From Bryobacterales bacterium (GTDB lineage: Bacteria > Acidobacteriota > Terriglobia > Bryobacterales > UBA6623): a stretch of DNA of 64,000 nt. The DNA is taken from assembly GCA_041394905.1 (NCBI GenBank), contig JAWKHJ010000018.1, positions 3,217-67,216 of the forward strand, given 5' to 3'. The notes beneath the pieces were generated by a model. The model made no database searches, was not told the DNA's origin, and saw only the letters and a program-made list of their open reading frames with translations. Each line of letters begins with the position of its first letter. Positions within the stretch are counted from its first letter, which is position 1. A program made the translations under genes and the position numbers. Shown here piece by piece: positions 26,414 to 46,787 of this stretch.

Positions 26414-27628
26414 CTAGCTCTGGAACACAGATTCGAGCCGCCGCACCTGCGCCGCGGCCAACTCCATCAGCCACCCCTCGGCATAGCGCACAGAATCGGG
26501 GCTGAGCGTGCGGATCGAGTCGAGATGACTCTTCGTCTTGCGTCCGAGCTCATATTCGCGAAGGAAGCTTTCCGGCGCGGCGGCGGTCGAGGGACGAATC
26601 AGTGCGCCTTCGATTTTCGACTGCCGCGCGATAAGCATCTCATGCTCGGCGCGAAGCTCGCCGCGCACCCGCTCGCCGGCTTTCTCGAGCGAGCGAGGCA
26701 GCTTACGGATGACCTTGTTGATGCGCTTGACGCGCTCGTCGATGTGACGCTGGATTTGTTCACGAGCCGCCTCGTAGAGCGGCGTCTGATCGCTATCTGC
26801 AAAGGGCATGCGCACCTCTGCGTACCAGCTCGATAGAGCCCAGAGGTTGCCAATGAGCTTGGCCGTCGTGATCAGCTTGCGCTTGAGACTGGTGTAGATC
26901 TCGCGGTCGAATCCCTCGACGTTCTGAGTGCGCGCGACCTCGAAGTGGACACAGCCCTGGCCAACATCGTGGCGCACGATGGAGCCGGCGGCAACCACTG
27001 CGCCGAAGTCGATGTGGACCGGGGCGACCAAGCCGACTTGTCCGCCGACAAAAACAGGCGCGGAGCGCAGCAGCACGCCGCGGACGTCACCCATCAAGCT
27101 GCCCCATTTGTCCTGGCGCGGGTCGAAGTTGAAATGCACCACCCCAGAGCCCACCTCGGAGTGGTCGTCGCGCGACGTGCCGCCCGACATGAACAGATCG
27201 CAGTAGTTGAGGATCGAGCCGGTGACGCAGGTCGCGGTGAGAATGGTGTTCTTGAATGCGACAGAGTGGGCCGCTTCCACTTCCTCTTCGAGCAGCGTGC
27301 CGGGGCGCAGTTCGGCGAAGCCGCGCACGGCGGCGCCTTCAAGCAGAGTGGCGCTGTCATAGGTTCCGGCGCCCATCTCGCAGTCGCGGCCGATCTGGCA
27401 ATCATGCACACGTGCGTGGCCGGACTGGCCGATCTTCGCTCCCCGACCGATGAAGGTCTTCGGCCCGCTGATCGTTGCGTTGTAGATGGTGGCGCCGGGC
27501 TCGATGTTCTCGATCGGCACATCGTCGGAGATGTATACGCGGTCCGAGCCCCAAACGTTCACCCCGCGATCGGACAGGCGAGCAATGCGGAGTCGGTTGC
27601 CGCCTTCGTCGTAACGATTTTCAAACAT
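26414..27628 (-). CDS. left-handed beta-helix (hexapeptide-repeat, GlmU C-domain-like) protein with helical C-terminal region
   Basis: ORF track 404 aa, intact. Repetitive I/V-G-x-x turns in the first 250 aa or so, then a charged helical tail. Last gene of the co-directional locus. Confidence 0.55.
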   Translation of the reverse strand: MFENRYDEGGNRLRIARLSDRGVNVWGSDRVYISDDVPIENIEPGATIYNATISGPKTFIGRGAKIGQSGHARVHDCQIGRDCEMGAGTYDSATLLEGAAVRGFAELRPGTLLEEEVEAAHSVAFKNTILTATCVTGSILNYCDLFMSGGTSRDDHSEVGSGVVHFNFDPRQDKWGSLMGDVRGVLLRSAPVFVGGQVGLVAPVHIDFGAVVAAGSIVRHDVGQGCVHFEVARTQNVEGFDREIYTSLKRKLITTAKLIGNLWALSSWYAEVRMPFADSDQTPLYEAAREQIQRHIDERVKRINKVIRKLPRSLEKAGERVRGELRAEHEMLIARQSKIEGALIRPSTAAAPESFLREYELGRKTKSHLDSIRTLSPDSVRYAEGWLMELAAAQVRRLESVFQS

Positions 27629-27642
27629 TCGAACCCCCGATT

Positions 27643-28812
27643 CTAGCCCATCGGGGGTGGTGTGACTTCACCGACGCCCAGGCCCGGGGCTTGGGGGAAA
27701 CAATACCCGGCGTCTCCCATCTCGACCGGGTGCTCGATGAACTGGTTCGCCCATTCGAGCACGCGCGGGTTGTATTCAACCAGATTGCAGCTCTCGGCCG
27801 CGGCGGCCAAGTGCAACGCGGCGGCGATTTGCGGACCACAGGCCGTGCTGACGTGCGGCACGACTTTGGCGCCGACCGAGGCCGCGGTCTCGGCAAGCGC
27901 AAACGATTCGGTGAGACCGACTCTGCCAAGGTCAGGCTGCAAAAACCCGACGACGCCTGCCTCGAAGAAGCGTTCGAGCTCATAGCGCGTGCGGTAGCTC
28001 TCGCCCAGCGCTAGAGGGGTCGCGATCGCTTCGTGCAGACGGCGGTGGACATCTACATCTTCAGGGTAGAAAGGCGCCTCGAGCCACAGGATGCCGCGGT
28101 TGTCGAGTTGCTTGCCAAATGCGACAGCACCCTCGGAGTCGAGCCGCCATAACGCGTCGACCGCGATTACGATGCCTTCGAAAGCGTCCTGCAAACGGTC
28201 GATCAAATCAAAGAGGTCGTCACGGGTCCGATCGTAGAAGAGCTTGTACGTGCGATAGCCCTGCTGCCAAGTTTTCCGAGCGGCCTCGACGCGGAGGGCA
28301 TTCGTGTCGCCGGCCAGACCGGAGACGTAGGCCGGCAGCTGCGACTTGGGGCTGTGCGCAACGAGAGCGGCGGCCGGCTTGCCTACGGCTTTGCCGGCCA
28401 AGTCCCACAAGGCGAGATCGACGCCGGCGATGGCATCCAGCATGAAGCCGCCGGTCTGACCGCGCACGCGCATGGTCGCGTACATGCGGCGATAGAGCTC
28501 AGCGATACGCTCGGGCGTCGAGTCGAGGTCTTCGCCGACAATGGCCGGTCGCAGCAACAACTCGACGATCGAACAGGCCACTTCAGGAGCGAGCGGCGCT
28601 TGCGCCTCGCCCCATCCCTCTAGGCCGTCGTCCGTGCGCACGCGGACGAGCGCAGTCTCGAAGCGCGACGAATAGAGGGTAGGAAACGTGGATGACCAGT
28701 GGTAGGCGAACTGGCCCTGCTGCAACTTGGCGGGCAAGCCCGCCGCGCCCGTGCCGGCGGCGACGTCACGGGCGAGCTTGACGGGAAAAGCGTCGAGAGC
28801 AGCGATTTTCAT
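27643..28812 (-). CDS. enolase-superfamily enzyme (mandelate racemase/muconate lactonizing family; probable acid-sugar dehydratase), cytoplasmic
   Basis: ORF track 389 aa. GWGEAQAP, IAGVDLALWDLAGK, and the metal-ligand pattern AVDA / WLEAP / LGES. Confidence 0.8.
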   Translation of the reverse strand: MKIAALDAFPVKLARDVAAGTGAAGLPAKLQQGQFAYHWSSTFPTLYSSRFETALVRVRTDDGLEGWGEAQAPLAPEVACSIVELLLRPAIVGEDLDSTPERIAELYRRMYATMRVRGQTGGFMLDAIAGVDLALWDLAGKAVGKPAAALVAHSPKSQLPAYVSGLAGDTNALRVEAARKTWQQGYRTYKLFYDRTRDDLFDLIDRLQDAFEGIVIAVDALWRLDSEGAVAFGKQLDNRGILWLEAPFYPEDVDVHRRLHEAIATPLALGESYRTRYELERFFEAGVVGFLQPDLGRVGLTESFALAETAASVGAKVVPHVSTACGPQIAAALHLAAAAESCNLVEYNPRVLEWANQFIEHPVEMGDAGYCFPQAPGLGVGEVTPPPMG

Positions 28813-28832: not shown

Positions 28833-29735
28833 CTAATAAACCAGCTTGCGCAACTGCGCCAGCTCGTCGAGCCCTGCGGCGTCGAGTGAGCGCGTCGGCT
28901 CGCGCACCGTGGCCGTCTTGATGATGCCGCGCGACACCAGGTTGTGCTTGGCGGCGGAGACGCCTAGGCCAGGTTGCAGCTCATAGCGAATCAACGGCAG
29001 CGCGCGCACGAATACTTCCCAGGCCTGCCCTGCGTCGCCGGCCTCGAGCGCGTTCCAGATCGCGACGAACAAACTCGTCATGTCAGCCGCAGGCATCACA
29101 CCGCGGGCGCCACGCTGGATCTCCTCGATCATGAACTGACCGTTGAGACCGCCCATCAACGTGACCGCTTCGCCGACCGCCCCGGCTACTGCAGTGATCT
29201 TCGGGGCCGTCGGCGGCGCCTCAACCTTTGCATATGCCACCCGCTCGACCTCGCGCCCGAGCCTGGCCAACAGCGCCGGAGGCATGGCGACGCCGGAGAG
29301 CATCGGCGCGTCCTGCACCATGATCGGAATCGTCACCGCATCCGAGATCGCACGGTAAAAAGCCACCACGCCCTCGCCGTCGGGCTTGAGGTAGTAAGGC
29401 GGCAGCACCATCAGCGCATTCGCCCCCAGGCCCTCCAGCATGCGGCAATCTTCCACCGCCGCCAGCGTCCCTGTGGCCCCGACTCCGGCAACCAGCGGAA
29501 CCCTTCCGTCAACATGGCGCGCGATCGTTTGCATCAGCTCGCGCTTCTCCGAAGAGAGCAACGCATAGCCTTCCCCCGCGTTGCCGAAAACACCGAGGCC
29601 GTGTGCGCCCTGTTCGATCAAATCGTCGGCGAGGCGCCTTTGGCTATCCAGATCGACCGAGCCGTCCTCGAAGAACGGCGTCGCGAGAATGGGGATGACC
29701 CCTTTGAGCAGCGGTTCCATCAAGCTCCTTGTCAA
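28833..29735 (-). CDS. DapA/dihydrodipicolinate-synthase-family lyase (2-keto-3-deoxy acid-sugar aldolase/dehydratase-like)
   Basis: ORF track 300 aa. ILATPFFEDGSVDL, GVFGNAGEG and the family TIM-barrel layout. The start overlaps the gntR stop by 4 nt. Confidence 0.8.
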   Translation of the reverse strand: MTRSLMEPLLKGVIPILATPFFEDGSVDLDSQRRLADDLIEQGAHGLGVFGNAGEGYALLSSEKRELMQTIARHVDGRVPLVAGVGATGTLAAVEDCRMLEGLGANALMVLPPYYLKPDGEGVVAFYRAISDAVTIPIMVQDAPMLSGVAMPPALLARLGREVERVAYAKVEAPPTAPKITAVAGAVGEAVTLMGGLNGQFMIEEIQRGARGVMPAADMTSLFVAIWNALEAGDAGQAWEVFVRALPLIRYELQPGLGVSAAKHNLVSRGIIKTATVREPTRSLDAAGLDELAQLRKLVY

Positions 29736-30448
29736 TCCGCCGCCGGCGCCGCTTCTTGGCGCTCGAGGTCGGCGAGAAGATTACGTTGGGCGCGGCGGAT
29801 GTGATCGGCCAACGCCTGGCCCAGTTCGGCGGCTTGGCGCCGGCCTAAGGCGTTCAGAATTTCGCGGTGCTCCGTCTGCTCCTGCGCCACGCGGGCGCGC
29901 CATTCCTCGGTGGCCGAGTGGATGCGCGCGATTTTGATGTGCGCCTCGAGCTCTTCATAGATCTCGTAGAGCTTGCGGTTGCCGCTCAAGCGAACCAGAC
30001 GGCGGTGGAACTCCGTGTTGAGCTCCTCGTGGCGCTGGCGCTGCTCGGCGTCCTCCACTGTCTCGTCCATGGCATCGACCATCGCCGTCAACTGATCGAG
30101 ATCATCCGGCGTGAGGTTCGAGACCGCGGACTCGGCGGCGAGCCGCTCGAGCGCGGTGCGCACCTCGAACGTCTCTGCGATTTCGCGCGGATCGATGCGC
30201 GCAATGTAGGTACCGCTGCGCGGAATGATCTCGACGAAACCGGCATCCGCGAGACGACCGATCGCCTGACGTACCGGCATCTGGCTGACGTCGAATGTCT
30301 CAGCGAGAGCCGGAATGTCGATCCGTTCACCGGGCTCGAAACGGCGGCCCAGAATAGCCGCGCGAATGCGCTCGTAGACATCATCGGCTATACGCCGGCG
30401 GTGAATCTTGGCGAAGCCGCTCGCTCTGGATTTGCGCGCTTTCTTCAT
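29732..30448 (-). CDS. GntR-family (FadR/FCD-type) transcriptional regulator
   Basis: ATG at 30448 (MKKARKSRASGF...) within ORF 29732..31195. wHTH IPALAETFDVSQMPVRQAIGRLADAGFVEIIPRSGTYI followed by a helical FCD domain. ATGA overlap with the MFS stop. Confidence 0.85.
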   Translation of the reverse strand: MKKARKSRASGFAKIHRRRIADDVYERIRAAILGRRFEPGERIDIPALAETFDVSQMPVRQAIGRLADAGFVEIIPRSGTYIARIDPREIAETFEVRTALERLAAESAVSNLTPDDLDQLTAMVDAMDETVEDAEQRQRHEELNTEFHRRLVRLSGNRKLYEIYEELEAHIKIARIHSATEEWRARVAQEQTEHREILNALGRRQAAELGQALADHIRRAQRNLLADLERQEAAPAAD

Positions 30449-31734
30449 CGTGCAAGCGCCTCTCGTGGCTGCGCCTGATCTTCGTCGATCCCGCCCTTGA
30501 CCAATGCCCGCAGCAAAAGATAGGCGGCGGGATGGAGGAACGACATCACTACAAAAATAGTCGCATAAGAATAGTGCTCGACTACATAGCCCACCGCACC
30601 GGTTGCGAGTACGGAGCTCAGCGAGCTTCCCAAACCAACCAATCCGGAGACGGAGCCGACGATGGCCGTGGGGTAGATGTCGTTCGTCATCGTCATTTGG
30701 TTGGTTTTCCACGACATGTGCGCGAAGGTAATCAAGCAAATTGCCGCGACCGCAATGACGTTCGACTCGGTCCAAGCGACGACCATGCCCAGCGGCATGA
30801 GCAACGCGCTGAACAGCATCACCCGGCTGCGAGCCTTCACCGGAGAGAGCCCGGCCTTGATCAACCGGCCCGAGGCGTAGCCGCCGAGCATGGAGCCGAT
30901 ATCCGCGGTGAGATAAGGAATCCAGGAGGTAAGCGCAACCATCTCGATGGTGAAGCCCCGATCCTCCTGCAAGTACTTGGGCAGCCAAAACAGATAAAAC
31001 CACCAAACCGGGTCGGCGACCACGCGCGTCAAAAACAATCCCCAGGTTTGCGGGAATTTGAATAGGTCGCGCCAGCGGATCTTCGTTTCCCGGCGGTTGA
31101 ACGCAGCCTCGCGCGCAATCATCTGCCGCTCGTCTTCGGTGACACGCGGATGCTCGTCCGGCGTCCAGTAGAGGCGCATCCAAAAAACCAGCCACACGAA
31201 GCCCGCCGCGCCAGTGATGACGAAGGCCGCGCGCCAGCCGTAGCTACGGTAGATCCAGACAATCAGCAGCGGCGCGACGATCGCGCCGGTCGCCGCCGCC
31301 GCGTTCACCAAGCCATTTGCGAAACCGCGTTCCTTGGGAGGAAACCACTCCGAGACAGCTTTCTCCGCCGCGAGGAAATTGCCCGCCTCGCCGGCGCCCA
31401 GCAGCGCACGGAACAGCCCTAGCGTCAGCGCCCCGCGCGCCACGCCGTGCAACATGTTGGCCAGCGACCACCAGACCATCGCCACAGCCAATGCAACGCG
31501 CGTTCCCCAGCGGTCGATCAGCAAGCCCCAGACGATGTACATTCCGGAGTAACAGATCAGAAACCCCTGAAGTATCTGCGAGTATTCGATATTCGAAAGG
31601 CCGAATTCGTCTGAAATCTGAACGGCGAGAACCGACAGCGTCTGACGATCGACGTAGTTGATCACCGTGGCGAAAAACAACAACGCCGCGACACGCCAGC
31701 GGATGTTCGGCGTCTTTGCAGCGGCGTCGGTCAT
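30445..31734 (-). CDS. MFS transporter, anion:cation symporter type (hexuronate/galactonate-like)
   Basis: ORF track 429 aa, 12 predicted TM segments. NYVDRQTLSV and GAGEAGNF motifs. Confidence 0.8.
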   Translation of the reverse strand: MTDAAAKTPNIRWRVAALLFFATVINYVDRQTLSVLAVQISDEFGLSNIEYSQILQGFLICYSGMYIVWGLLIDRWGTRVALAVAMVWWSLANMLHGVARGALTLGLFRALLGAGEAGNFLAAEKAVSEWFPPKERGFANGLVNAAAATGAIVAPLLIVWIYRSYGWRAAFVITGAAGFVWLVFWMRLYWTPDEHPRVTEDERQMIAREAAFNRRETKIRWRDLFKFPQTWGLFLTRVVADPVWWFYLFWLPKYLQEDRGFTIEMVALTSWIPYLTADIGSMLGGYASGRLIKAGLSPVKARSRVMLFSALLMPLGMVVAWTESNVIAVAAICLITFAHMSWKTNQMTMTNDIYPTAIVGSVSGLVGLGSSLSSVLATGAVGYVVEHYSYATIFVVMSFLHPAAYLLLRALVKGGIDEDQAQPREALAR

Positions 31735-33017
31735 CCTACCCGATACCTTTCTAGCTTTCTCTCGTCAAACTCGACGCCAATGCCGTGACCTTCCGGCACG
31801 CGCGCGTCTCCCGGGCTCCAAGCAAGCGGATGTTTGAGCAGATCGTTGCCGAAGGGCCGCTCGAGCAGTGTGCCGCCCTCGATGATGACCGAGTTGGGCG
31901 TGTGCGCGGCCAGGTGCGTCGATGCCGCCAAATAGAGCGCCGTTCCAGTAGAGACGTGCGGAGACCAGAGCACGCCATGTACGTCCGCCAAGATGGCGAT
32001 CTTACGGCACTCGGTCACGCCGCCTGCACGACAAACGTCCGGATTGATGATGTCGACGGCTCGCGCCGTGAACAAGTCGCGAAACTGGAATCGGTTTGAA
32101 ACCTCTTCTCCCGCACAGATAGGCGTCTTGAGCGAGGCGCTGAGTTCGGCATAGCCGCCGATGTCCTCGGGCAGCAGAGCGTCTTCCCACCAGCCAATGT
32201 TGGACAACTCGTCGAGCCGTGCGCCCACCTCGCGCGCTTCGTGGATCTTGTACGCGCCGAGCGAATCGAGCAACAGCTGGCCGTTCTTCCCGATGGCTTC
32301 TGATGCTGCGAACACGCGCTCGATGTCCGACGTGCCGGCGCCCTTCGCCAGACCCATCTTCACGGCGGAGAAGCCTCGCTCGAGCGCCGCACGCGCGTTG
32401 CGTTGCAGCTCGTCGAGGGTGCGGCCGCCTAGGCTCGAATACGTCGGGATAGCATCACGGTATTTGCCGCCCAACAAGCGGTAAAGCGGCTGCTCAGTGT
32501 ACTTGCCCAGCAAATCCCACAGCGCCAGGTCGATGCCAGCGATCGATTCTGTGAAGAAGCCGGTGGCGTAGCCGCGTGTGCGCTGGCTCGAGTAGAGCTT
32601 TTCCCACAACGGTTCGACTTGCCGCGCGTCCTGCCCAACCAGAATCGGAGCGAACAGATCGCTGACAACCGCCTCGTGGACACGTGGCGCGGCGGGCGCA
32701 TGACTCTCACCCCAGCCGACGAGCCCCTGCTTGGTGGTGATCTTGACCAGCAACGCTTGGGTAGCGCCGTGGAAGCGGGAAGGCGACGCGTGATCGAGCC
32801 GGTTCCAGAGGCCTTTGCCGCCGGTCATCGCGCCTAACGGCGGCATCTGGATGTAGTGCTCGGGCGGCTGGTCTTCAACAGGCGTGCGAATGACAATCGG
32901 CTCCGCGCTTTGGATCTCGAGCGGCCCGTTGCCCGCGGCATGAAGGCGATCGAGCAGCGGAGCGGCGGAGAGGCCGAGAGCGCTCGAGAGGAATCGGCGG
33001 CGGCTGGTCTTCGACAT
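31731..33017 (-). CDS. enolase-superfamily enzyme (mandelate racemase family) with twin-arginine signal peptide
   Basis: ATG at 33017 (MSKTSRRRFLSSALGLSAAPLLDRLHAAG) inside ORF 31731..33476. GWGESHAP, IAGIDLALWDLLGK, and the ligand pattern LLLD / WWED / AGEE. Confidence 0.8.
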   Translation of the reverse strand: MSKTSRRRFLSSALGLSAAPLLDRLHAAGNGPLEIQSAEPIVIRTPVEDQPPEHYIQMPPLGAMTGGKGLWNRLDHASPSRFHGATQALLVKITTKQGLVGWGESHAPAAPRVHEAVVSDLFAPILVGQDARQVEPLWEKLYSSQRTRGYATGFFTESIAGIDLALWDLLGKYTEQPLYRLLGGKYRDAIPTYSSLGGRTLDELQRNARAALERGFSAVKMGLAKGAGTSDIERVFAASEAIGKNGQLLLDSLGAYKIHEAREVGARLDELSNIGWWEDALLPEDIGGYAELSASLKTPICAGEEVSNRFQFRDLFTARAVDIINPDVCRAGGVTECRKIAILADVHGVLWSPHVSTGTALYLAASTHLAAHTPNSVIIEGGTLLERPFGNDLLKHPLAWSPGDARVPEGHGIGVEFDERKLERYRVG

Positions 33018-33040: not shown

Positions 33041-33826
33041 TTACTGGGCGTCCTGCACGCAGCGGAAGCCCAAATTGGGGGTCTTCTGATTGGGGCGAAC
33101 CCAGTTGCGGAAGAAAACGGTGATGCGTCGCGGACCGCTGGACCACGAGCCGCCCCGGATGACTTTGTACATCCCGGTCTCCGGTCCCTTGGGGTTGGCG
33201 GCCGGACTGGCTTCGTAATAGGTGCGTTCGAACCAGTCGCTGCACCATTCCGCCACTCCGCCGGCCATGTCGCGCAGCCCATAGGCATTGGGTTTGCGTT
33301 TGCCGACCGCGCTTGGGCCCAGAGGAGTATTGAACAGCGCGACCGATGTGGTCGGCTTGTCGTCGCCCCAAGGATAGTCGAGCCCTTCCAGTCCGCCGCG
33401 GGCGGCTTTTTCCCACTCGGCCTCGGTCGGCAGACGTTTGCCCGCCCAGGCGCAATAGTCGGAGGCGTCCTGCCAATCCACGTTGTAGACCGGGAGGTCC
33501 TTTTTCTCTTCCGGCATCTTGCCGCCCAGCCAGTGGTATGGAGGTGTGTGGTGGGTCGCTTCGACGAACGCGGCGTACTTGGCGTGGGTAACCTCATCGA
33601 CGTCCATGTAGAACGCGTCGATCAGGACCGTGTGTACAGGGCGGTCGTCGCGCAAGGCGAGCGGCCGCATGCCCTTTTCGTCATCGGCAGTCAATCGGTG
33701 ACGGCCCATCGAAAACTCGCCCGCGGGAATGAGAGCCATGCCCATCGGCGCCTTGGGCGCGGCGTTCTCCGCCGCCGTCAGCGTTGTCGCGAGCGCGAGC
33801 CCGATCAAGACGCGGAACGCGTTCAA
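33041..33826 (-). CDS. secreted FGE-sulfatase-fold (SUMF1/EgtB-like) domain protein lacking the FGE Cys pair
   Basis: ORF track 261 aa. Signal peptide, YCAWAGKRLPTEAEWEKAARGG, NAYGLRDMAGGVAEW and RGGSW...GFRC. The start overlaps the DUF1501 stop by 4 nt. Confidence 0.8.
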   Translation of the reverse strand: MNAFRVLIGLALATTLTAAENAAPKAPMGMALIPAGEFSMGRHRLTADDEKGMRPLALRDDRPVHTVLIDAFYMDVDEVTHAKYAAFVEATHHTPPYHWLGGKMPEEKKDLPVYNVDWQDASDYCAWAGKRLPTEAEWEKAARGGLEGLDYPWGDDKPTTSVALFNTPLGPSAVGKRKPNAYGLRDMAGGVAEWCSDWFERTYYEASPAANPKGPETGMYKVIRGGSWSSGPRRITVFFRNWVRPNQKTPNLGFRCVQDAQ

Positions 33827-35208
33827 ACGAAGAGCTCCTCGATTTCGTCAGCGATGCAGGGCTCGGTTGCGCCCAACGGATCGACGAAGCGGTAGACACG
33901 TTTGGACGGCGTATTCGTGATCTCCTTGGTCCAATCGATGCCCAGCGCGGAGTAGACCGAAGCGACGATGTTTTCGGTTTTCGGCTGCATCTTGTGCTTC
34001 CAGCCCGTCTCGACGCAGTGCTCGCCGTCAGCGTCCGTCTTGCCGATGATGCGGCCGCCCTTCACGCCGCCGCCAGCGAACAAGCCGACGTAGCAGAGGT
34101 TGTAGTGGTGCCTCCCGGCGACTCCGTTGAGCTTGCCGGGTACACGTCCAAACTCGGTCGGTACGGCGATGACCGTCTCGTCGAGCAAAGTCTTTGCGGG
34201 GTCGCGCGGAGAGGGCGTCGACTCGAGATCGGTGATCAGGTTCGCCAACGCCTGGTCGAGTTTGTTGCAGTGCTCGTAGTGGTTGGAGCCAACCTCGTGG
34301 TTGAAGATGTTCTTGTGGTGATCCCAACCCGAGTGCTTCACGTGGATGTAGCGCGTACCGGCGTCGGCTTGCACCAGGTTGCGCGCCAGCAGGCAGCCCA
34401 GACCGACTTCGTTGTCGCCGTAGCGCTCTTTGTCCGCAGCGGCGAGGTCAAGCGCAGCGGGCCAGCGCGAGTCGCCAAGCACGTGATAAGCCTCTTCCTG
34501 GAAGGAACGGAAGCCCTCCAGCTCTGGGCCGCGGCGGCCTTGTTCGCGCGCAATGGCTTTCTCGAGGTCACCAAGCAGGCGATAGCGCTCTTCGAGCAGA
34601 GCCAGAGCTTCGCCCTTGGCTGCAACCGAACCCGCTCCCGCGCCGGCGTCCACATCAAGGCCGGAGTACCGCGGGTGCAGGAAGCCGCTCGGCAAGGCGG
34701 ACGATCCAAGATTACAGGAGATGAAAGTCGGAAAAGTATCCGACTCGCGGCGCTGCGAATAGAGTTCCGACGAAACAATCGAACCGACGGGCGGAATCTC
34801 AGCGACCTGCGCCGGATTCAATGGACGGCCGGCGCGCGTGTAATACTCGCCGCGGAAGTGCACCACCTCGTGGCTCTTGAACGAACGCACGATCGAGACT
34901 TTGTCCATCAGCGCGGACAACTGCGGAAACAGACGGTAAGAGAGATACAGATCGTTGCGGATTTGACGCACGTCGAAATCTGCCTGCGTACCCTCGTCCT
35001 CCTTGAAGTCGAAGGTATCCACATGGCTGATCGCGCCGGCCGCCTCCACGATGATGGCAAAGCGCGCCGTCCCGCGAGGGTTGGCCCGGCCGGCGGCGCG
35101 AACCTTCGAAGGCCACAGACCTTCTCCGACGAACGCACCGAGCAGGCTAGCCGTGCCGTACTTGAGCACGTCGCGGCGGGTGGCGATGAGGTCTCTTACC
35201 GTGCGCAT
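33823..35208 (-). CDS. DUF1501-family protein (alkaline-phosphatase/sulfatase fold) with Tat-type signal
   Basis: ATG at 35208 (MRTVRDLIATRRDVLKYGTASLLGAFVG) inside ORF 33823..35457. AGAISHVDTFDFKED, SGWDHH and TEFGR motifs. Confidence 0.8.
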   Translation of the reverse strand: MRTVRDLIATRRDVLKYGTASLLGAFVGEGLWPSKVRAAGRANPRGTARFAIIVEAAGAISHVDTFDFKEDEGTQADFDVRQIRNDLYLSYRLFPQLSALMDKVSIVRSFKSHEVVHFRGEYYTRAGRPLNPAQVAEIPPVGSIVSSELYSQRRESDTFPTFISCNLGSSALPSGFLHPRYSGLDVDAGAGAGSVAAKGEALALLEERYRLLGDLEKAIAREQGRRGPELEGFRSFQEEAYHVLGDSRWPAALDLAAADKERYGDNEVGLGCLLARNLVQADAGTRYIHVKHSGWDHHKNIFNHEVGSNHYEHCNKLDQALANLITDLESTPSPRDPAKTLLDETVIAVPTEFGRVPGKLNGVAGRHHYNLCYVGLFAGGGVKGGRIIGKTDADGEHCVETGWKHKMQPKTENIVASVYSALGIDWTKEITNTPSKRVYRFVDPLGATEPCIADEIEELFV

Positions 35209-35237
35209 GTTTCTGTTTCCCTTTGCATGTCGTCCAT

Positions 35238-37145
35238 TTAATAGTTGAAAAGAAACTCCGGCTTGTTGACGAGGGCCCACTGCAGGTTTTCGAGTCCCTG
35301 TTTGCGGTCCTTGTCGAGCGCGCCTAGCGCCACGTCCATCTCGGCGGCGACGGGGCGACGGGTCAGCGTCGCGACGTAGAGCTTCTCGACGAGCGCGCGA
35401 TTTAGAGCGCGAGTCATCTCGTCTTCCGTGGGTTCGCGGCCAGTGGCGGCGCGCCACGCTTGCTCGATGTCGATGCGATCTTCCTCGGCATGACCGAGCA
35501 ATTGCGCCACGCGACTCTCGCCCTCGGCCTTGACACGCTCGAGCACGACGTCGGAATTCATCATCAGCATGGCTTGCAGAGAAGAGGTCGGCGTGCGTGT
35601 GGGCATTTCGTCCCGCGTTTGCTGACCGAAGGCGCGCATCAGTTCGCCGACTTCGCTGTTCACGTGCGCCGGGTCGAGCAACTGCCGTGCTAGCTGCACG
35701 CCGTCCACGCCGCTGTCATAAGAACCCGGTACCGCCGTCGCCGTGACCAGTGAGTCGTGCAACTGCTCCGGGCTCAGCATGCGCACGAATTTGCGATTGA
35801 AGGTTCGCGCATACTCCGGCTTCCACTCCGCATCGAATTGCGACGAGAGCTGGTAGGCGCTCGAATTCATGATCGTGCGAATCAGATGTTTGAAGCTGAA
35901 ATTGCTCTTTTGAAAGTCCTTCGCCAGGTCGTCGAGCAATTCGGGGTCGGAAGGCTGCACCGTCCAGCCATCCGGAATGTCCTGGCTGGGGTAGTAGCGA
36001 TTGAGGTCGAAGTCCTCGATCGGCTCGACGATGCCGAATCCCATCAGCTCGGACCAGATGCGGTTCGTCGTCGCGCGCGCGAACTGGATGTGACCGGTGA
36101 GCAGGCGAGCAAGCTCGTCGCGCGGCAGAGCGTCAGGGCGCGCAGCCTCGTTCGTCAGGATGAAGTGGGGCTCGTTCGATCCGCCGGTGCGCGGAACGCG
36201 CACGATGCTCTCGCCTTCGGTCGGGTAGCCCGGCTCCACGTCGTCAACGGTGTACTCCGTGTTGGCCTGGAAGCCGTTTTCCCAGTTCATCAACATGCGC
36301 GTGCGGCCGAAGAACGACGCCTGCTGAAAGAACTGCTCGCGTGTGTGGGCGGTCAGCCACAGGTTCACCTTCTCCAAGTGATTGGCGCCGTCGTGGCAGG
36401 AGATGCATCCAAAATTCATCCCCAGCAGCACCTTGCCGTACGTGATCGTGAACTCATCGATCGCGTCGGCGCGGTTGACCAGATCGTGGGCGTCGGGCTC
36501 GTCCGGGTCGTCCTTCGCCTTCACGAAGTCGCGCGCGAAGTAGAGCCCGCCAGGCAAAGAATGGCTGCTCTTGCCACCCTGCGTCAGCAAGTCGGTCACC
36601 ACTTCGTTGTACGGCCGGTCGAGGGTCAGCCATTCCTCGATCCAGAAGTGGAACAAGTTTTTCCCGTAGCCCATGCGGTTGCCCGCGCGGAACAGGTCCT
36701 CGAAGTAGTAGGACCAGCGCTCGACGAACTCCTTGCTGTCGACCAGCTCGTCGATCAGCCTTTCGCGTTTTTCCGGGTCGTCATTCCGCAGGAACGTCTG
36801 CGTCTCCTCGAGCGTCGGAATGCGCCCGATGGCATCTAAATAGGCTCGGCGCAGGAACTCCTGGTCGCTCGCGATACCTGCATGCGGGATGCCCTGTTGC
36901 TCGATCTTTCCGAAAATGTGGTCGTCAATGAAGTTGCGCTTCTGGACATGCAGGGAGGGTGCGTCCGAGCGAAGCGCAGCGGTTTGGCGGGTGAGCTCTT
37001 CGGCCGTCTTTGCCGCATCCGCCGGCTCGGACTCCAGCCTTTGGTGCGCGCGCTCCATGCGCTCGCGAGCCTCGGGCGTCAGCGTTTGCGCGGCGGACAT
37101 GGCCGCGAAACACATAACGAGCGCTGCAATTCGGAACATTGGCAT
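35238..37145 (-). CDS. DUF1549/DUF1553 (PSCyt2/PSD1-like) protein with signal peptide
   Basis: ATG at 37145 (MPMFRIAALVMCFAAMSAAQ) inside ORF 35238..37526. FLRRAYLDAIGRIPTLEE (DUF1549), CISCHDG, C-terminal LQWALVNKPEFLFNY (DUF1553). Confidence 0.8.
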   Translation of the reverse strand: MPMFRIAALVMCFAAMSAAQTLTPEARERMERAHQRLESEPADAAKTAEELTRQTAALRSDAPSLHVQKRNFIDDHIFGKIEQQGIPHAGIASDQEFLRRAYLDAIGRIPTLEETQTFLRNDDPEKRERLIDELVDSKEFVERWSYYFEDLFRAGNRMGYGKNLFHFWIEEWLTLDRPYNEVVTDLLTQGGKSSHSLPGGLYFARDFVKAKDDPDEPDAHDLVNRADAIDEFTITYGKVLLGMNFGCISCHDGANHLEKVNLWLTAHTREQFFQQASFFGRTRMLMNWENGFQANTEYTVDDVEPGYPTEGESIVRVPRTGGSNEPHFILTNEAARPDALPRDELARLLTGHIQFARATTNRIWSELMGFGIVEPIEDFDLNRYYPSQDIPDGWTVQPSDPELLDDLAKDFQKSNFSFKHLIRTIMNSSAYQLSSQFDAEWKPEYARTFNRKFVRMLSPEQLHDSLVTATAVPGSYDSGVDGVQLARQLLDPAHVNSEVGELMRAFGQQTRDEMPTRTPTSSLQAMLMMNSDVVLERVKAEGESRVAQLLGHAEEDRIDIEQAWRAATGREPTEDEMTRALNRALVEKLYVATLTRRPVAAEMDVALGALDKDRKQGLENLQWALVNKPEFLFNY

Positions 37146-37147
37146 CT

Positions 37148-38101
37148 TTACTTTACCCGACGAAATATCTGCACCCGGTTGCCATTCACCTCCGCGACGA
37201 ACAGGCGTCCGTCCGCAGCCGTTGCCATCAGGTGCGGCAGCTGCAGCGTCTGCGCGTCGCCCCACTGCGCCACGAGCTTGCCGTCTTTCAAGCTGAGGTG
37301 GTTGATCTTGTTGGCATCGCCGTCGCTCACCAGCAGAACGTCCCCCACGACTAGAGCGCCAAACGGATTGCCGAAGCCGCCCCAGGCGCCGAGGAACTTG
37401 CCCTCGGGTGAAAACACCTGGATACGGTTGTTCCCGCGGTCGGCCACGTAGATGCGGTCCTGCTTGTCGATCGCGATTCCGTGTGCGGCCGCGAACTCGC
37501 TCTCGCCCTTGCCTTTCTTGCCCCATTCGCCCACGTAGGAGCCGTCGGCCTTCAAGTGGACGATGCGCCCGTTGCCGGCGTCGGCCACGTAAATGTCGCC
37601 GTTGGAGGCGAACACCAAATCGTCGGGCGAGCGAAACAGGGTCTCCCCCGCCCCGGGCGTCGACTCGAGCCCGTAGGTCGCGAGCAATTCGCCTTGGGGC
37701 GAAAACTTGCGGATCACGTGGCGCCCGTTGTCCGTCGTCCAGATGTTGCCGTCGGGCCCGACGCGCAGCCCATGCGCCACCTGGAACATGCCGTCGCCGA
37801 AGGCGTTCACCATCTTGCCCTTGTCGTTGAATGCCAACAAAGGCGGCTCGCCCCGGTGCAGAATATAGACGTTGCCTTTGGCGTCGACATCGACCGCGGA
37901 CATCGCCCCCAAGCGCACCGCTCCCGGGATCTCGACGAAGCCCTCGGAGACGTAGGGCTCGGCGGCCATGGCAGCCGTTGCGAGCAAAAAAAGAGCCACG
38001 GGGACCAGCGCTTGCGACCGTCCCCGCAACGGATGGCGGACGCGGAGGAGACAGCCACGAGTGACTGCCCCCAGCGCGCCGGATTGAAGCAAATTCTTCA
38101 T
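37148..38101 (-). CDS. secreted NHL-repeat six-bladed beta-propeller protein
   Basis: ORF track 317 aa. Repeated GxxxxPxGxAVDxxGNIYVAD-like blades (GNVYILH, GNIWTTD, GDIYVAD, DRIYVAD). Confidence 0.8.
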   Translation of the reverse strand: MKNLLQSGALGAVTRGCLLRVRHPLRGRSQALVPVALFLLATAAMAAEPYVSEGFVEIPGAVRLGAMSAVDVDAKGNVYILHRGEPPLLAFNDKGKMVNAFGDGMFQVAHGLRVGPDGNIWTTDNGRHVIRKFSPQGELLATYGLESTPGAGETLFRSPDDLVFASNGDIYVADAGNGRIVHLKADGSYVGEWGKKGKGESEFAAAHGIAIDKQDRIYVADRGNNRIQVFSPEGKFLGAWGGFGNPFGALVVGDVLLVSDGDANKINHLSLKDGKLVAQWGDAQTLQLPHLMATAADGRLFVAEVNGNRVQIFRRVK

Positions 38102-38105
38102 AGCT

Positions 38106-41100
38106 CTAGAAGATCAGCTTGAGGCCAAGCTGGATGACGCGCGCATCGCGCGCCGCCGTGATGGTACCGAACGAGCCACTGGCATTGAAGCCGTCCGGGC
38201 CAGGCGAGAAGCTGTCGTTCACCAGCTTGTAGTTCGTCTGGTTGAGGAAGTTGAACGCCTCGGCGCGAAACTGCACGTTGAATCGCTCGCTGATCCGAGT
38301 GTCCTTGATCATCGAAAGGTCCCAATTGACTGCGCCGGGGTGCCGCACGTCCGGTAAAGCGCGTCCTACGTTGCCGAAGGTAAAGTCCGGCGGGTTGACG
38401 AACTGCGTCGTGTCGAACCAACGCTGCGGCGTGCGCTCGCCACGCGGCAATGCGGCGCTCACACCAGTCGAATTGGGACGGTCGGCCTGGAAGTTGCTCG
38501 CACCGCGAACGGTTACCGGCACGCCGTTTTGCATCACGCCGATCACGTTGAGCTGCCATCCGCCGACGATCTTGCGCATCACGGCGCTGCCCGGATCGAA
38601 ACGCCGACCACGTCCGAACGGCAACTGGTAGATGCCGCTCAGCACAAGTCTGCGCGAAACGTCCGTCGGGTCGATCGAACGTGCCGGTTGGCGGTTATAC
38701 AACCCGTTCTGGAAGCCGTTCTCATTCACCTGCTCCACCGAGCCGAAGTTAACCGGGTTCGCGAGCGAATCAGAAATCCGCTTGCCGCCGGTGAACGCCG
38801 CGTGCAACAGCAATCCGTTGGTCAGCCGCTTCTTCACCGTCAATTGCAGCTGGTGCGAAACGTAGTTGCCGAGTCTGGGGTTCCGGATGCTTACGGAGTT
38901 GTAGTACGGAAACGCCATCAGTGAACGCTCACGCGTGATGGTGGCCGCGCCAAGGCCGCCGGGCGCCATGCCGGCATACGGATTGGGCACGCGGTCGTTC
39001 AGCGACTGGCCGAGTGCTAGGCGTGTCGCCGGGTCAATCTGGTTTAGGTTGTAGCCCGACCCGATGAAGTGGTTGCCCTTGTTGCCCGCGTAGCTTGCTT
39101 CGAACATCCAATCCTTGATTTGGTGCTGGATGCCGAAGTTCCATTGCTGGGTCAGCGGCGTGGTCTTGTCCGACTCGGTCAGGTTCACTGACTGCCCCAA
39201 GCGCGCGGCCGGGCCGGCGGAAGCGCCCGGAGACTCGTCGGGAGCATAGGGCAGACCGTTCTCGAACTGGAAGGCGGCCAAGCCGGGCGTCCCCGTCACA
39301 TATTGCGTGCGCGTGCTCGAGAACAGCGTGACATCGCCAAGGAAGTTGCGCCAGAAGATCGACGGATAAAACACACCGTAGCCGCCACGTAGTACCGTCT
39401 TACCTTTGCCGGTCACGTCGTAGGCAAAGCCAAAGCGTGGCGCGAAATCGTTGTGATCCTCGTTCAAGAAGGTCCGCGGCTGGCCGTCGACGCCCGCGAA
39501 GACCGTACAGCCGGTCAGGCCGTTGGGTAGCGTGCAGGTCGGGTCGAAGTTGATTTGGCCGTTGTTGCGCTCGTAGGGCTTCTGCTGGAAGTCGTAACGC
39601 GCGCCCAGGTTGAGGGTCAAGCGGCGCGAAACCCTCCAGTCGTCTTGCAGGAAGAAGCTCCAGGCGACGGCATGCCAGGAGTTGCCCAAAATGCGGTCGA
39701 TGCTCGCCGAAGAGACCGAACCGAGCAGGAACTGCGCCATGTTGGAGCCGGTTCCGCTGGTCCTTTGCGGGTTGGTGGTCAGCCCGCTGAAGGCGTAGTT
39801 GCCGGACAGAGCCGCGCCCTGCTTGTTGCCGCCGTAGAGGTTGCGGTAGTTTGCCCCAATCTTGAGCGTGTGCGAGCTCTTCACCAGCGTGACCATGTCC
39901 TGCACGTCCCAGTTGAGGGAGGTCCGCGTGCCGGCAGCGCCGCCGCCGATCGTGCCAAAGCCGAAGTTCACCTGCGGCATCTGATCGTTGGGCACGCTCG
40001 CGGGCAGGCCGAGCTTGCTCGGCCAGTCCTGGCCGAAGTTGACGGCCGTAAAGGCAAACGCCTGGCGCATGATGCCCACACGCAGGTTGTTGATCACGGT
40101 CGGCGAAAACGTGTGTGTATCGGAAACGACGGCGTTGCGGTTCGTCTGATCGTCAAAGCGGTTGGAGCCCGCATTGGGATCGGTGAAGATCGCGTTCGAC
40201 GAGGGCTGGTGGCGCGACTGCGTGTAGCGCACGAAGATCGAATTCTTGTCGGTGATGCGGTGGTCGACCTTCGTGTTCCATTGCGACCAATCGACGTTGC
40301 TCGCCGAGACGTCCTGGTAATTCTGGCTGAAAGTGTAGGCGTTGACCGGCGCACGGTTGGCGTTGGGCCACAGCGCAACGATGTTCGGTGCGACATTGTC
40401 AAAGCGGGTCTGCGGTACCTGATTGTTCGCGAAGACATCGCGGACAAGACCAGAGCCCGCCGGATTGGGCCGCGTCGTCGCCGGATCATAAACCGGGATC
40501 GAGGCGCCCGAGGCCGTGCGTAACTCGCTGAAATCGCCCTGTCGGAACGGCGCGATCGGAACCGTCGAGATTCGCGGGTTGGAACGGCGCAGACGATACT
40601 CTTCCCAGTTGAAGAAACCGAACGTACGATTCTTGATGATCGGGCCGCCGATCGAGGCGCCGAACTGGTTGTAGCGCAGCGGCAGCTTCGTCCCCGCGAA
40701 GGTATTGCGCGCATCGAACTTGTCGTTGCGCAGAAATTCGTAGGCCGTGCCGTGGATCTGATTGGTGCCGGAACGGGTAACCAAGTTGACCGCACCGCCG
40801 GCCGTGAAACCAAACTCCGCCGACATCGTGCCCGATTGCACTTTGAACTCTTCCACCGCATCGACAGCCGGCGGAACGCCAATCTCGCCAACGTAGCTCA
40901 GCGTGTTGTTGTTGCCGTCGAGCATCTGGGCGTTCATCGAGTTGGGGCTGCCGTTGATCGAAATCGACGAAAGCGCGATGCCACGATCCCCGAAGCCGGA
41001 GTTCGTGGGGCCGGCGTTCGAAACCACGCCGGCGTTCAGCATGGTCAAGGCGAGCGCGTTGCGCCCGTTTAGAGGCAAGTCCGCCACGCTTTTGCGCTCG

Positions 41101-41507
41101 ATCACTTCGCCCAGAGTCGCGTCCGATGCGCTCACCAGCGGAGCCTCGCCCGTGACCTCGACCACCTCGGCCACCGCGCCAACCTCGAGCGTCAAGTTGA
41201 TCTGCGCGATCTGATTCACTTGCAAAGTCACGCCGCTGTGGACGGCGCGCTTGAAACCAGCCGACTCAGCGGTAATCTCGTACTCTCCAACGGCGAGACC
41301 GGGCGCAACGTATCCGCCGCGCTCGTTTGTCACCGTCGAAAAGACCGCATTGGTCGACGTGTTCACGACATTCACCTGTGCTCCGGGAATGACTGCGCCC
41401 TGCTGGTCGCTCACCGTTCCCGAAATCGTGCCCATGCTCTGCTGGCCAAAGGCGGTCAGCGCACACAAGGCGCTCAGCGCAACAATGCGCATACCTCGAA
41501 CCTTCAT
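38106..41507 (-). CDS. TonB-dependent receptor, CarboxypepD_reg-plug-barrel type (paralog 1)
   Basis: ORF track 1133 aa, intact. Signal peptide, GTISGTVSDQQGAVIPGAQV, and C-terminal LGLKLIF aromatic end. CAGGAGG ribosome-binding site about 12 nt upstream. Confidence 0.9.
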   Translation of the reverse strand: MKVRGMRIVALSALCALTAFGQQSMGTISGTVSDQQGAVIPGAQVNVVNTSTNAVFSTVTNERGGYVAPGLAVGEYEITAESAGFKRAVHSGVTLQVNQIAQINLTLEVGAVAEVVEVTGEAPLVSASDATLGEVIERKSVADLPLNGRNALALTMLNAGVVSNAGPTNSGFGDRGIALSSISINGSPNSMNAQMLDGNNNTLSYVGEIGVPPAVDAVEEFKVQSGTMSAEFGFTAGGAVNLVTRSGTNQIHGTAYEFLRNDKFDARNTFAGTKLPLRYNQFGASIGGPIIKNRTFGFFNWEEYRLRRSNPRISTVPIAPFRQGDFSELRTASGASIPVYDPATTRPNPAGSGLVRDVFANNQVPQTRFDNVAPNIVALWPNANRAPVNAYTFSQNYQDVSASNVDWSQWNTKVDHRITDKNSIFVRYTQSRHQPSSNAIFTDPNAGSNRFDDQTNRNAVVSDTHTFSPTVINNLRVGIMRQAFAFTAVNFGQDWPSKLGLPASVPNDQMPQVNFGFGTIGGGAAGTRTSLNWDVQDMVTLVKSSHTLKIGANYRNLYGGNKQGAALSGNYAFSGLTTNPQRTSGTGSNMAQFLLGSVSSASIDRILGNSWHAVAWSFFLQDDWRVSRRLTLNLGARYDFQQKPYERNNGQINFDPTCTLPNGLTGCTVFAGVDGQPRTFLNEDHNDFAPRFGFAYDVTGKGKTVLRGGYGVFYPSIFWRNFLGDVTLFSSTRTQYVTGTPGLAAFQFENGLPYAPDESPGASAGPAARLGQSVNLTESDKTTPLTQQWNFGIQHQIKDWMFEASYAGNKGNHFIGSGYNLNQIDPATRLALGQSLNDRVPNPYAGMAPGGLGAATITRERSLMAFPYYNSVSIRNPRLGNYVSHQLQLTVKKRLTNGLLLHAAFTGGKRISDSLANPVNFGSVEQVNENGFQNGLYNRQPARSIDPTDVSRRLVLSGIYQLPFGRGRRFDPGSAVMRKIVGGWQLNVIGVMQNGVPVTVRGASNFQADRPNSTGVSAALPRGERTPQRWFDTTQFVNPPDFTFGNVGRALPDVRHPGAVNWDLSMIKDTRISERFNVQFRAEAFNFLNQTNYKLVNDSFSPGPDGFNASGSFGTITAARDARVIQLGLKLIF

Positions 41508-46755: not shown

Positions 46756-46787
46756 CGTGAGTTGGGGTTACAAGTCCCGCAACCGAG

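Follow-up and report, generated by a model that had tools for sequence, protein, structure and literature searches.

A predicted twin-arginine-exported enzyme of the enolase superfamily in a sugar-acid gene string of a Bryobacterales bacterium

Why would a gene string of sugar-acid type encode an enolase-superfamily enzyme with an export signal? The question is raised by a 64,000 bp stretch of DNA from a Bryobacterales bacterium (GenBank assembly GCA_041394905.1, contig JAWKHJ010000018.1, positions 3,217 to 67,216; the whole stretch is called the window below). An earlier note, made from the sequence alone, had placed at 31731–33017 a mandelate racemase-type enzyme, here named P0002, with a signal for twin-arginine translocation (Tat). 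To our knowledge, the characterised acid-sugar dehydratases, cycloisomerases and racemases of the enolase superfamily are all cytoplasmic, and both pathway models and genome annotation presume this location for such enzymes. Our full-text literature searches found no paper on Tat-exported members of the superfamily, incidental co-mentions being all that came up, and databases annotate the enolases with Tat leaders without remark on the leader. In this work we analysed the leader, the active site, the relatives and the gene neighbourhood of P0002. The enzyme is probably exported by the Tat route to the periplasm, where it would carry out a Mg-dependent abstraction of an alpha proton and a beta-elimination on an acid sugar, between import through a TonB-dependent receptor and uptake by a transporter of the major facilitator superfamily (MFS).

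The gene and its twin-arginine leader

The coordinates 31731–33017 proved correct for the minus strand, which the earlier note had left unstated: the ATG is at 33017 and the stop codon at 31731–31733. A plus-strand reading of the same interval was rejected, its translation being full of stops. The features on which the argument rests are the following (MR, mandelate racemase; AF2, AlphaFold2).

31731..33017, minus strand: gene of the Tat-leader enolase-superfamily enzyme P0002, MR subgroup-like, 428 aa (translation, Pfam, AF2 model, Foldseek)
32931..33017, minus strand: predicted twin-arginine signal peptide, codons 1–29 (read from the sequence; n-region MSKTS, then RRRFL, h-region SSALGLSAAPLL, c-region DRLHAAG with an A-A-G site)
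32997..33002, minus strand: codons for R6-R7, the invariant twin arginines (46-homolog alignment)

The minus-strand translation gives the leader MSKTSRRRFLSSALGLSAAPLLDRLHAAG, and the product begins MSKTSRRRFLSSALGLSAAPLLDRLHAAGNGPLEIQSAEPIVIRTP. All the motifs quoted earlier for this protein (GWGESHAP, IAGIDLALWDLLGK, LLLD, WWED and AGEE) were present in it, and the complete MR/MLE barrel was confirmed as well, with both MR_MLE domains and an intact catalytic core. In particular, the N-terminal capping domain (PF02746, MR_MLE_N, residues 88–183, 62.8 bits) and the C-terminal modified TIM barrel (PF13378, MR_MLE_C, residues 204–420, 187 bits) that mark the enolase superfamily were both detected above the Pfam cut-off. 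The AF2 model of P0002 has a pLDDT of 87 and a pTM of 0.87, and the top PDB matches of this model in Foldseek all belong to the enolase superfamily (TM score 0.75–0.91).

The S-R-R-x-F-L motif that the earlier note had recognised is borne out: the leader is genuine and its twin arginines are kept family-wide. Residues S5-R6-R7-R8-F9-L10 fit the S/T-R-R-x-F-L pattern of Tat substrates and are followed by a moderately hydrophobic h-region of 12 uncharged residues (SSALGLSAAPLL) and by the c-region DRLHAAG, which contains a basic residue and has small residues at -3/-1 of the A-A-G site. In the AF2 model residues 6–26 form a detached helix of low confidence.

Across 46 aligned homologs (50–86% identity) R6 and R7 never vary, and the remaining leader positions are unconserved. 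Of the 120 nearest matches in a collection of 5.8 billion proteins (57–85% identity), 108 show RRx[F/L] close to the N-terminus, and most of the members that lack the motif are evidently truncated gene calls. Of 104 family leaders, 94 have F or L at RR+2 and 73 have L or F at RR+3; the uncharged stretch has a median length of 15 residues and a mean hydropathy of 1.23, and the median distance from the twin arginines to the end of the leader, directly ahead of the first beta strand, is 26 residues. It should be noted that a stricter Tat regular expression matched none of 150 representatives and missed the family members P0125 and P0140; the N-termini were read directly instead.

A downstream start codon, which the earlier note had named as a way in which the twin-arginine peptide could be lost, was looked for and found untenable. 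ATG, GTG or TTG occurs in the first 100 codons at codons 1, 58, 64 and 89 only. In the AF2 model residues 34–45 make up the capping domain's first beta strand, and signal-less relatives start exactly at this strand (e.g., MKIxxVE), so that a downstream start would delete a conserved structural element; codons 58, 64 and 89 were all rejected on this ground. An in-frame upstream extension to the TTG at 33476 was also rejected: it is Arg-rich, overlaps in another frame the upstream gene for a protein with the FGE-sulfatase fold (FGE-like below) and is missing from homologs.

The genome encodes TatC (206 bits) and contains two TatA/B/E genes (66.8 and 63 bits), one of them about 700 bp from tatC. 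A crude motif census of open reading frames (ORFs) of at least 200 codons gave about 320 Tat-like leaders in this genome versus 28 in a reversed-sequence control, which indicates a heavy use of the Tat route by the source organism and an unusually large predicted Tat secretome. Since the twin arginines of P0002 are invariant amid variable flanks, the motif recurs in nine tenths of the closest homologs and no alternative start is usable, the leader is far beyond chance; we regard it as neither a chance resemblance nor a start-codon artefact.

Active site, clade and paralogs

The earlier note had proposed an alignment to characterised dehydratases as a check of the general base. In the alignment with DgoD of Escherichia coli (reference sequence taken from the K-12 record) the metal ligands and the His-Asp dyad were found to be kept, whereas the histidine of strand 3 and the KxK motif of strand 2 were not. 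The three carboxylate ligands at the ends of barrel strands 3, 4 and 5 (D251, E278 and E304) correspond to D183, E209 and E235 of DgoD, and the MR-subgroup dyad of strands 7 and 6 (His354-Asp327) corresponds to H285 and D258. Because all five aligned residues are invariant in the 46 homologs, the metal site and the His-Asp base of P0002 are judged intact. K220 at strand 2 is likewise invariant in the family.

The position two residues past the first metal ligand is occupied in DgoD by His185 (D183-x-H185, DFHG motif), which we take to be the general acid. P0002 has Leu253 here and so lacks the general-acid histidine of D-galactonate dehydratase; D-S-L-G is invariant in the Tat family, and the signal-less sister sequences P0128 and P0130 retain D-A-H-G. 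At the end of strand 2, where the MR subgroup has KxK, P0002 reads K220-M-G222. A clade-specific pair, K225-G226, lies five residues beyond K220, and K225 is kept in at least 90% of the sequences. Two further features are shared by the family. The cap loop G62..TGGxGLWNRLDHASPSRF82 is highly conserved and has low confidence in the model, as would be expected of a mobile lid. Arginines 73, 81, 146, 148, 187 and 234 are invariant, and so many invariant arginines suggest a strongly anionic substrate.

Among solved structures, the best matches by sequence were 4ggb/4hpn (192 bits) and 5olc (171 bits). The same entries were found again by fold, alongside several enolases of uncharacterised function. 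Both of these nearest solved relatives catalyse beta-eliminations giving 2-keto-3-deoxy acids. A homology-based assignment of the substrate was dropped, all NCBIfam equivalog scores being far below cut-off, and P0002 is best described as an MR-subgroup-like member that fits no characterised function.

The boundary of the Tat-tagged clade is sharp. From the P0002 family, a HMMER search over 1.84 billion 50%-identity representatives gave fragments and a single full-length match, P0125, which scored 481 bits at 51% identity and has a twin-arginine leader. The next relatives in this search scored at most 305 bits at no more than 43% identity, and every full-length one among them starts at the first strand, leaderless. 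In a maximum-likelihood tree the Tat clade (support of 100 in the SH-aLRT, the Shimodaira-Hasegawa-like approximate likelihood ratio test) is nested among signal-less relatives, and we conclude from this nesting that the leader was gained by the P0002 clade and then retained. With the paralogs sampled in the tree, well-supported branches require the Tat label to have changed three times or more.

The paralogs themselves were found by tblastn of the source genome (6.85 Mb, 104 contigs, 88% complete), which contains about 23–25 enolase-superfamily loci. At least 12 of them carry a twin-arginine leader directly before the first strand. Besides P0002 these are the following (contig:positions, all tblastn).

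C4:118521-119822, C67:65-1288, C2:247264-248445, C32:19462-20682: Tat-leader enolase paralogs
C15:1072-2307, C33:12017-13339, C20:125867-127114, C5:244097-245350: Tat-leader enolase paralogs
C10:212974-214218, C25:45212-, C14:16239-17480: Tat-leader enolase paralogs

The N-terminal region of the C67 paralog is also found at a contig end in C24. The paralog in C14 has an Arg-rich, out-of-frame middle part and a normal C-terminal barrel, which is probably due to a frameshift, either in a pseudogene or by assembly error. In C25 the ORF of the paralog (45212–46756) continues into a second twin-arginine leader (MNRRDYLKLAGANALAAASAPSQASAQ); either two genes for Tat substrates seem to share one frame, or a stop codon seems to have been lost.

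Four of the Tat-leader paralogs (C67, C32, C15 and C20) exceed the cut-off of the NCBI galactonate dehydratase equivalog. The C15 type has at least 8,000 homologs, with the motif in 110 of the top 120, and its top homologs are named 'galactonate dehydratase' in NCBI and JGI annotation (Bryobacteraceae, Pirellulales, Isosphaeraceae and Singulisphaera). Judged by these homologs, a second Tat-tagged enolase family spans Acidobacteriota and Planctomycetota. As to the P0002 family, a survey of sampled genomes detected it in 44 out of 76 belonging to the GTDB family of the source organism, in 48 out of 201 from the order, and in none of 300 from the phylum outside the order (E <= 1e-110); named homologs are also present in Blastocatellia and Latescibacterota. 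The trait appears both real and widespread. The earlier description of Tat export as unusual for such an enzyme thus holds against the characterised enzymes, but in this lineage export signals are common: they occur on a dozen or more paralogs of a single genome, on hundreds of homologs and in a second family as well.

The gene string and related loci

The neighbours of P0002 are all on the minus strand, in the order TonB-type receptor, NHL protein, DUF1549/DUF1553 protein, DUF1501 protein, FGE-fold protein, Tat-leader enolase, MFS transporter, GntR/FCD regulator, DHDPS-family enzyme, second enolase (P0003) and a beta-helix protein.

38106..41507, minus strand: TonB-dependent-receptor-type outer-membrane barrel, CarboxypepD_reg + OMP_b-brl_4 (Pfam; a like gene stands beside orthologs)
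37148..38101, minus strand: NHL six-bladed beta-propeller with a Sec-type leader (Pfam NHL 93.6 bits; SGL, i.e. SMP-30/gluconolactonase/LRE-like, 41.9 bits vs cut-off 26.3)
35238..37139, minus strand: DUF1549/DUF1553 (PSCyt2/PSD1) protein (Pfam, tblastn)
33823..35280, minus strand: DUF1501 protein of sulfatase/phosphatase fold, start approximate (Pfam DUF1501; tblastn with the L002 ortholog)
33041..33826, minus strand: FGE-sulfatase-fold protein with a Sec-type leader (Pfam; stop 21 nt ahead of the enolase ATG)
30445..31734, minus strand: MFS transporter, anion:cation symporter type, DgoT-like (Pfam MFS_1 202 bits; TIGR00893 241 bits)
29732..30448, minus strand: GntR/FCD-family regulator, start approximate (Pfam GntR + FCD in the C-terminal part of ORF 29732–31195; the L002 ortholog has 232 aa)
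28833..29735, minus strand: DHDPS-family enzyme without signal (Pfam DHDPS; best PDB matches 3fkk and 7c0c, L-2-keto-3-deoxyarabonate (L-KDA) dehydratase, 140 bits)
27643..28812, minus strand: signal-less enolase-superfamily paralog P0003 (MR_MLE_N + MR_MLE_C; starts MKIAALDAFPV; catalytic residues present)

Two claims of the earlier note on the neighbours stood up to this analysis. The exported enolase is followed by an MFS transporter of acid-sugar type, the ATG of which overlaps the enolase stop by 4 nt (31731–31734); among NCBIfam models the D-galactonate transporter TIGR00893 fits it best, below cut-off at the score given above, and it shares 27% identity over its full length with E. coli DgoT (E 1e-51). 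The signal-less paralog at 27643–28812 belongs, by Pfam and translation, to the same co-directional string; it is 31% identical to P0002. The NHL propeller, encoded upstream of the enolase, is a candidate periplasmic lactonase, and the DHDPS-family gene points to the end of a non-phosphorylative pathway of the Weimberg type rather than to an aldolase. The last gene of the string, at 26414–27628 on the minus strand, gave weak hexapeptide/LbH matches only; its counterpart in L002/L003 has no Pfam match, and its position is conserved.

The Tat-leader enolase, the MFS, GntR and DHDPS genes, the second enolase and the TonB receptor were found together in five loci of four other assemblies (L002/L003, L004, L007, L008 and L009; two near-duplicates), at 58–78% identity and in shuffled order. 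The retention of the same gene core despite this shuffling argues for a functional linkage. The DUF1501 orthologs in L002 and L008 have twin-arginine leaders of their own. In a Latescibacterota locus the Tat-leader enolase is accompanied by a sulfatase, a PfkB kinase, an aldolase of the 2-keto-3-deoxy-6-phosphogluconate (KDPG) type and a TonB receptor, with no second enolase. Another locus of the source genome (L006, G000:C4:109000-128999) contains a 51%-identical Tat-leader paralog together with an Alginate_exp outer-membrane porin, the TRAP components DctP/DctM and an SDR, again with no second enolase; it is predicted to be a second arrangement of channel, exported enolase and acid transporter.

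Common to these loci are an outer-membrane channel, a predicted exported enolase, an inner-membrane organic-acid transporter and cytoplasmic consumers of 2-keto-3-deoxy acids. Twin-arginine or Sec leaders are found in them on the FAD oxidoreductase, DUF1501, sulfatases and the NHL protein, and are absent from DHDPS, the second enolase, the SDR, the kinase and the aldolase. The oxidoreductase is a large FAD-dependent protein (PF12831, with or without an F5/8 type C domain) encoded at L002:3928-5898 and L007:11367-13721. Both copies carry twin-arginine leaders (MKRRDFLGAG... and MKITRRQLMGAM...) and are candidate periplasmic sugar oxidases; no such gene was found in the P0002 locus, nor genome-wide above 150 bits.

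Proposed role, alternatives and known systems

We infer cleavage of the leader, actual export, the type of reaction, the substrate and the order of the steps as follows. P0002 would fold in the cytoplasm and be exported to the periplasm by the Tat translocase. Its substrate would come in via the TonB-dependent receptors of the gene string and may be prepared there by the signal-bearing NHL/gluconolactonase-like propeller, the DUF1501 protein and the FGE-like protein. The His354-Asp327 dyad would take the alpha proton of a carboxylate sugar, the Mg-stabilised enediolate being held by D251, E278, E304 and K220, and the beta substituent would then be eliminated, by dehydration of an aldonate or aldarate or by ring-opening of a lactone or anhydro acid, to give a 2-keto-3-deoxy sugar acid. 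This product, or the unconverted acid, would be imported by the translationally coupled DgoT-type MFS symporter, and the L-KDA-dehydratase-like DHDPS-family enzyme and the signal-less enolase P0003 would complete the pathway in the cytoplasm under GntR/FCD control. A periplasmic conversion before uptake, already suggested in the earlier note, fits the split of the locus into products with signals (TonB receptor, NHL, DUF1501 and FGE-like proteins) and products without them (the DHDPS-like enzyme and the second enolase).

Several observations weigh against this scheme. The sole Pfam match on the P0002 leader, TAT_signal (PF10518), scores 16.8 bits, below the gathering threshold of 22.7, and TIGR01409 does not match there, although the leader of the 51%-identical paralog passes this model (25.6 bits vs cut-off 16.7). 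The cleavage site A-A-G is no better than AxA-like. The best NCBIfam model for the enzyme, the galactonate dehydratase equivalog NF010624, gives 220 bits, below its cut-off of 311. The active site differs from that of characterised dehydratases (Leu253 for His, Gly222 for the second Lys of KxK), which makes dehydration less than certain and leaves room for a 1,1-proton transfer, epimerisation among others. Finally, if the periplasmic enzyme already yields a 2-keto-3-deoxy acid, the role of the co-encoded cytoplasmic enolase is unexplained.

The last two points lead to an alternative that we consider unlikely but worth stating, namely that P0002 is exported by Tat but works as a racemase or epimerase, making the stereoisomer accepted by the MFS transporter and the cytoplasmic enolase. 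It would account both for the missing strand-3 histidine and for the co-encoding of a catalytically intact, dehydratase-like paralog, and K220 and K225 together with the dyad would give the active site a candidate base on either face, the arrangement of mandelate racemase. However, the KxK lysine that serves mandelate racemase as second base is Gly in P0002, the solved structures closest in sequence belong to cycloisomerases that eliminate, and the Latescibacterota locus, with a kinase, a KDPG-type aldolase and no second enolase, needs a 2-keto-3-deoxy product. Loci of the latter kind also bear on the proposal that the leader is put to another use, either as an uncleaved signal-anchor tethering P0002 to the outer face of the inner membrane by the MFS transporter or as a hitchhiker handle that exports P0003 as part of a hetero-oligomer. 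Enolase-superfamily enzymes are oligomers, the signal-less paralog is present in five of the six related loci examined, and the A-A-G site is not kept in more distant homologs. Against this, the Latescibacterota and C4 loci have the Tat-leader enolase without a second one, three genes separate the two enolases here and in L008 they are in divergent operons, the two proteins are of low mutual identity (31%), and the DHDPS partner of P0003 is signal-less, which would leave the product of an exported P0003 in the wrong compartment. We hold anchor and hitchhiker together to be improbable, and piggy-back export of the paralog is unlikely precisely because of the loci without a second enolase and of the cytoplasmic pathway partner.

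It is still harder to believe that the leader is non-functional, whether through a downstream start or as an incidental twin-arginine extension, and that the enzyme stays in the cytoplasm like its characterised relatives. The ATG at 33017 lacks a strong Shine-Dalgarno sequence, and the leader scores against hidden Markov models are sub-threshold. Yet codons 2–57 include no ATG, GTG or TTG, and a start at codon 58 loses the first strand; the twin arginines are invariant amid variable flanks, and six-frame searches recover an alignable leader from dozens of genomes; a Tat translocase is encoded, and the census of Tat-like leaders exceeds its control more than tenfold. We regard this last alternative as very improbable and retain Tat export followed by beta-elimination in the periplasm as the probable role of P0002.

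If so, a part of sugar-acid catabolism in abundant soil phyla would take place outside the cytoplasm, coupled to TonB-dependent uptake in loci resembling polysaccharide-utilisation loci. Predictions of transporter substrates would change, a 2-keto-3-deoxy acid being imported and not an aldonate, 'galactonate dehydratase' annotations would read differently, and the enolase superfamily would be added to the known repertoire of Tat substrates. The P0002 clade also supplies a defined enzyme in which a changed acid/base set can be tested. On a more speculative note, and with doubts of our own, it can be proposed that Acidobacteriota and Planctomycetota have moved upper non-phosphorylative sugar-acid catabolism to the periplasm via several independently Tat-tagged clades, and that the P0002 clade (His to Leu253, new Lys225) may carry out an elimination of a new kind; its substrate would then have a good leaving group, as do lactones, anhydro-sugar acids or sulfated sugar acids from a TonB-imported glycan.

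Classical folded Tat substrates include glucose-fructose oxidoreductase of Zymomonas mobilis and AmiA, AmiC and SufI of E. coli. P0002 shares with them the S/T-R-R-x-F-L leader, the weakly hydrophobic h-region and the basic c-region. They include the case of a soluble, oligomeric enzyme of cytoplasmic type sent folded to the periplasm; P0002 is likened to it by its leader sequence, and no enolase-superfamily member is among these classical substrates.

Of the two solved relatives, the D-galactaro-1,4-lactone cycloisomerase Gci of Agrobacterium tumefaciens (4GGB/4HPN, 'proposed galactarolactone cycloisomerase') aligns over P0002 residues 81–426 with TM scores of 0.76–0.86 and about 29–33% identity in structural alignment. 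The two enzymes have in common the two-domain fold, the Asp/Glu/Glu metal ligands and the Asp-His dyad. Gci differs in having no signal peptide and in reading K-I-K at beta-2 and D-A-N-H at beta-3, against K-M-G...K225 and D-S-L-G in the P0002 family. Like P0002 in the proposed scheme, it reportedly acts upstream of a DHDPS-family 2-keto-3-deoxy-acid dehydratase in an oxidative uronate pathway. The 3,6-anhydro-D-galactonate cycloisomerase DauB of Zobellia galactanivorans (5OLC; TM score to P0002 up to 0.91) catalyses a ring-opening beta-elimination to 2-keto-3-deoxy-galactonate, and is said to be encoded in a polysaccharide-utilisation regulon that also encodes sulfatases. Its PDB chain enters the alignment at residue 38 and shows no evident twin-arginine leader, it carries K-M-K and D-S-N-H motifs, and its host and pathway are other ones, a marine member of the Bacteroidota and carrageenan.

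A parallel at the level of the locus is the dgo set of E. coli (DgoT, DgoK, DgoA and DgoR). DgoD is 32% identical to P0002 over 350 residues, with ligands and dyad aligning one to one, but begins MKITKI and, unlike P0002, has no leader. The P0002 locus resembles the dgo set in its DgoT-homologous transporter and in a GntR/FCD regulator corresponding to DgoR, and departs from it downstream, where E. coli has a kinase and an aldolase and the P0002 locus a KDA-dehydratase-like enzyme.

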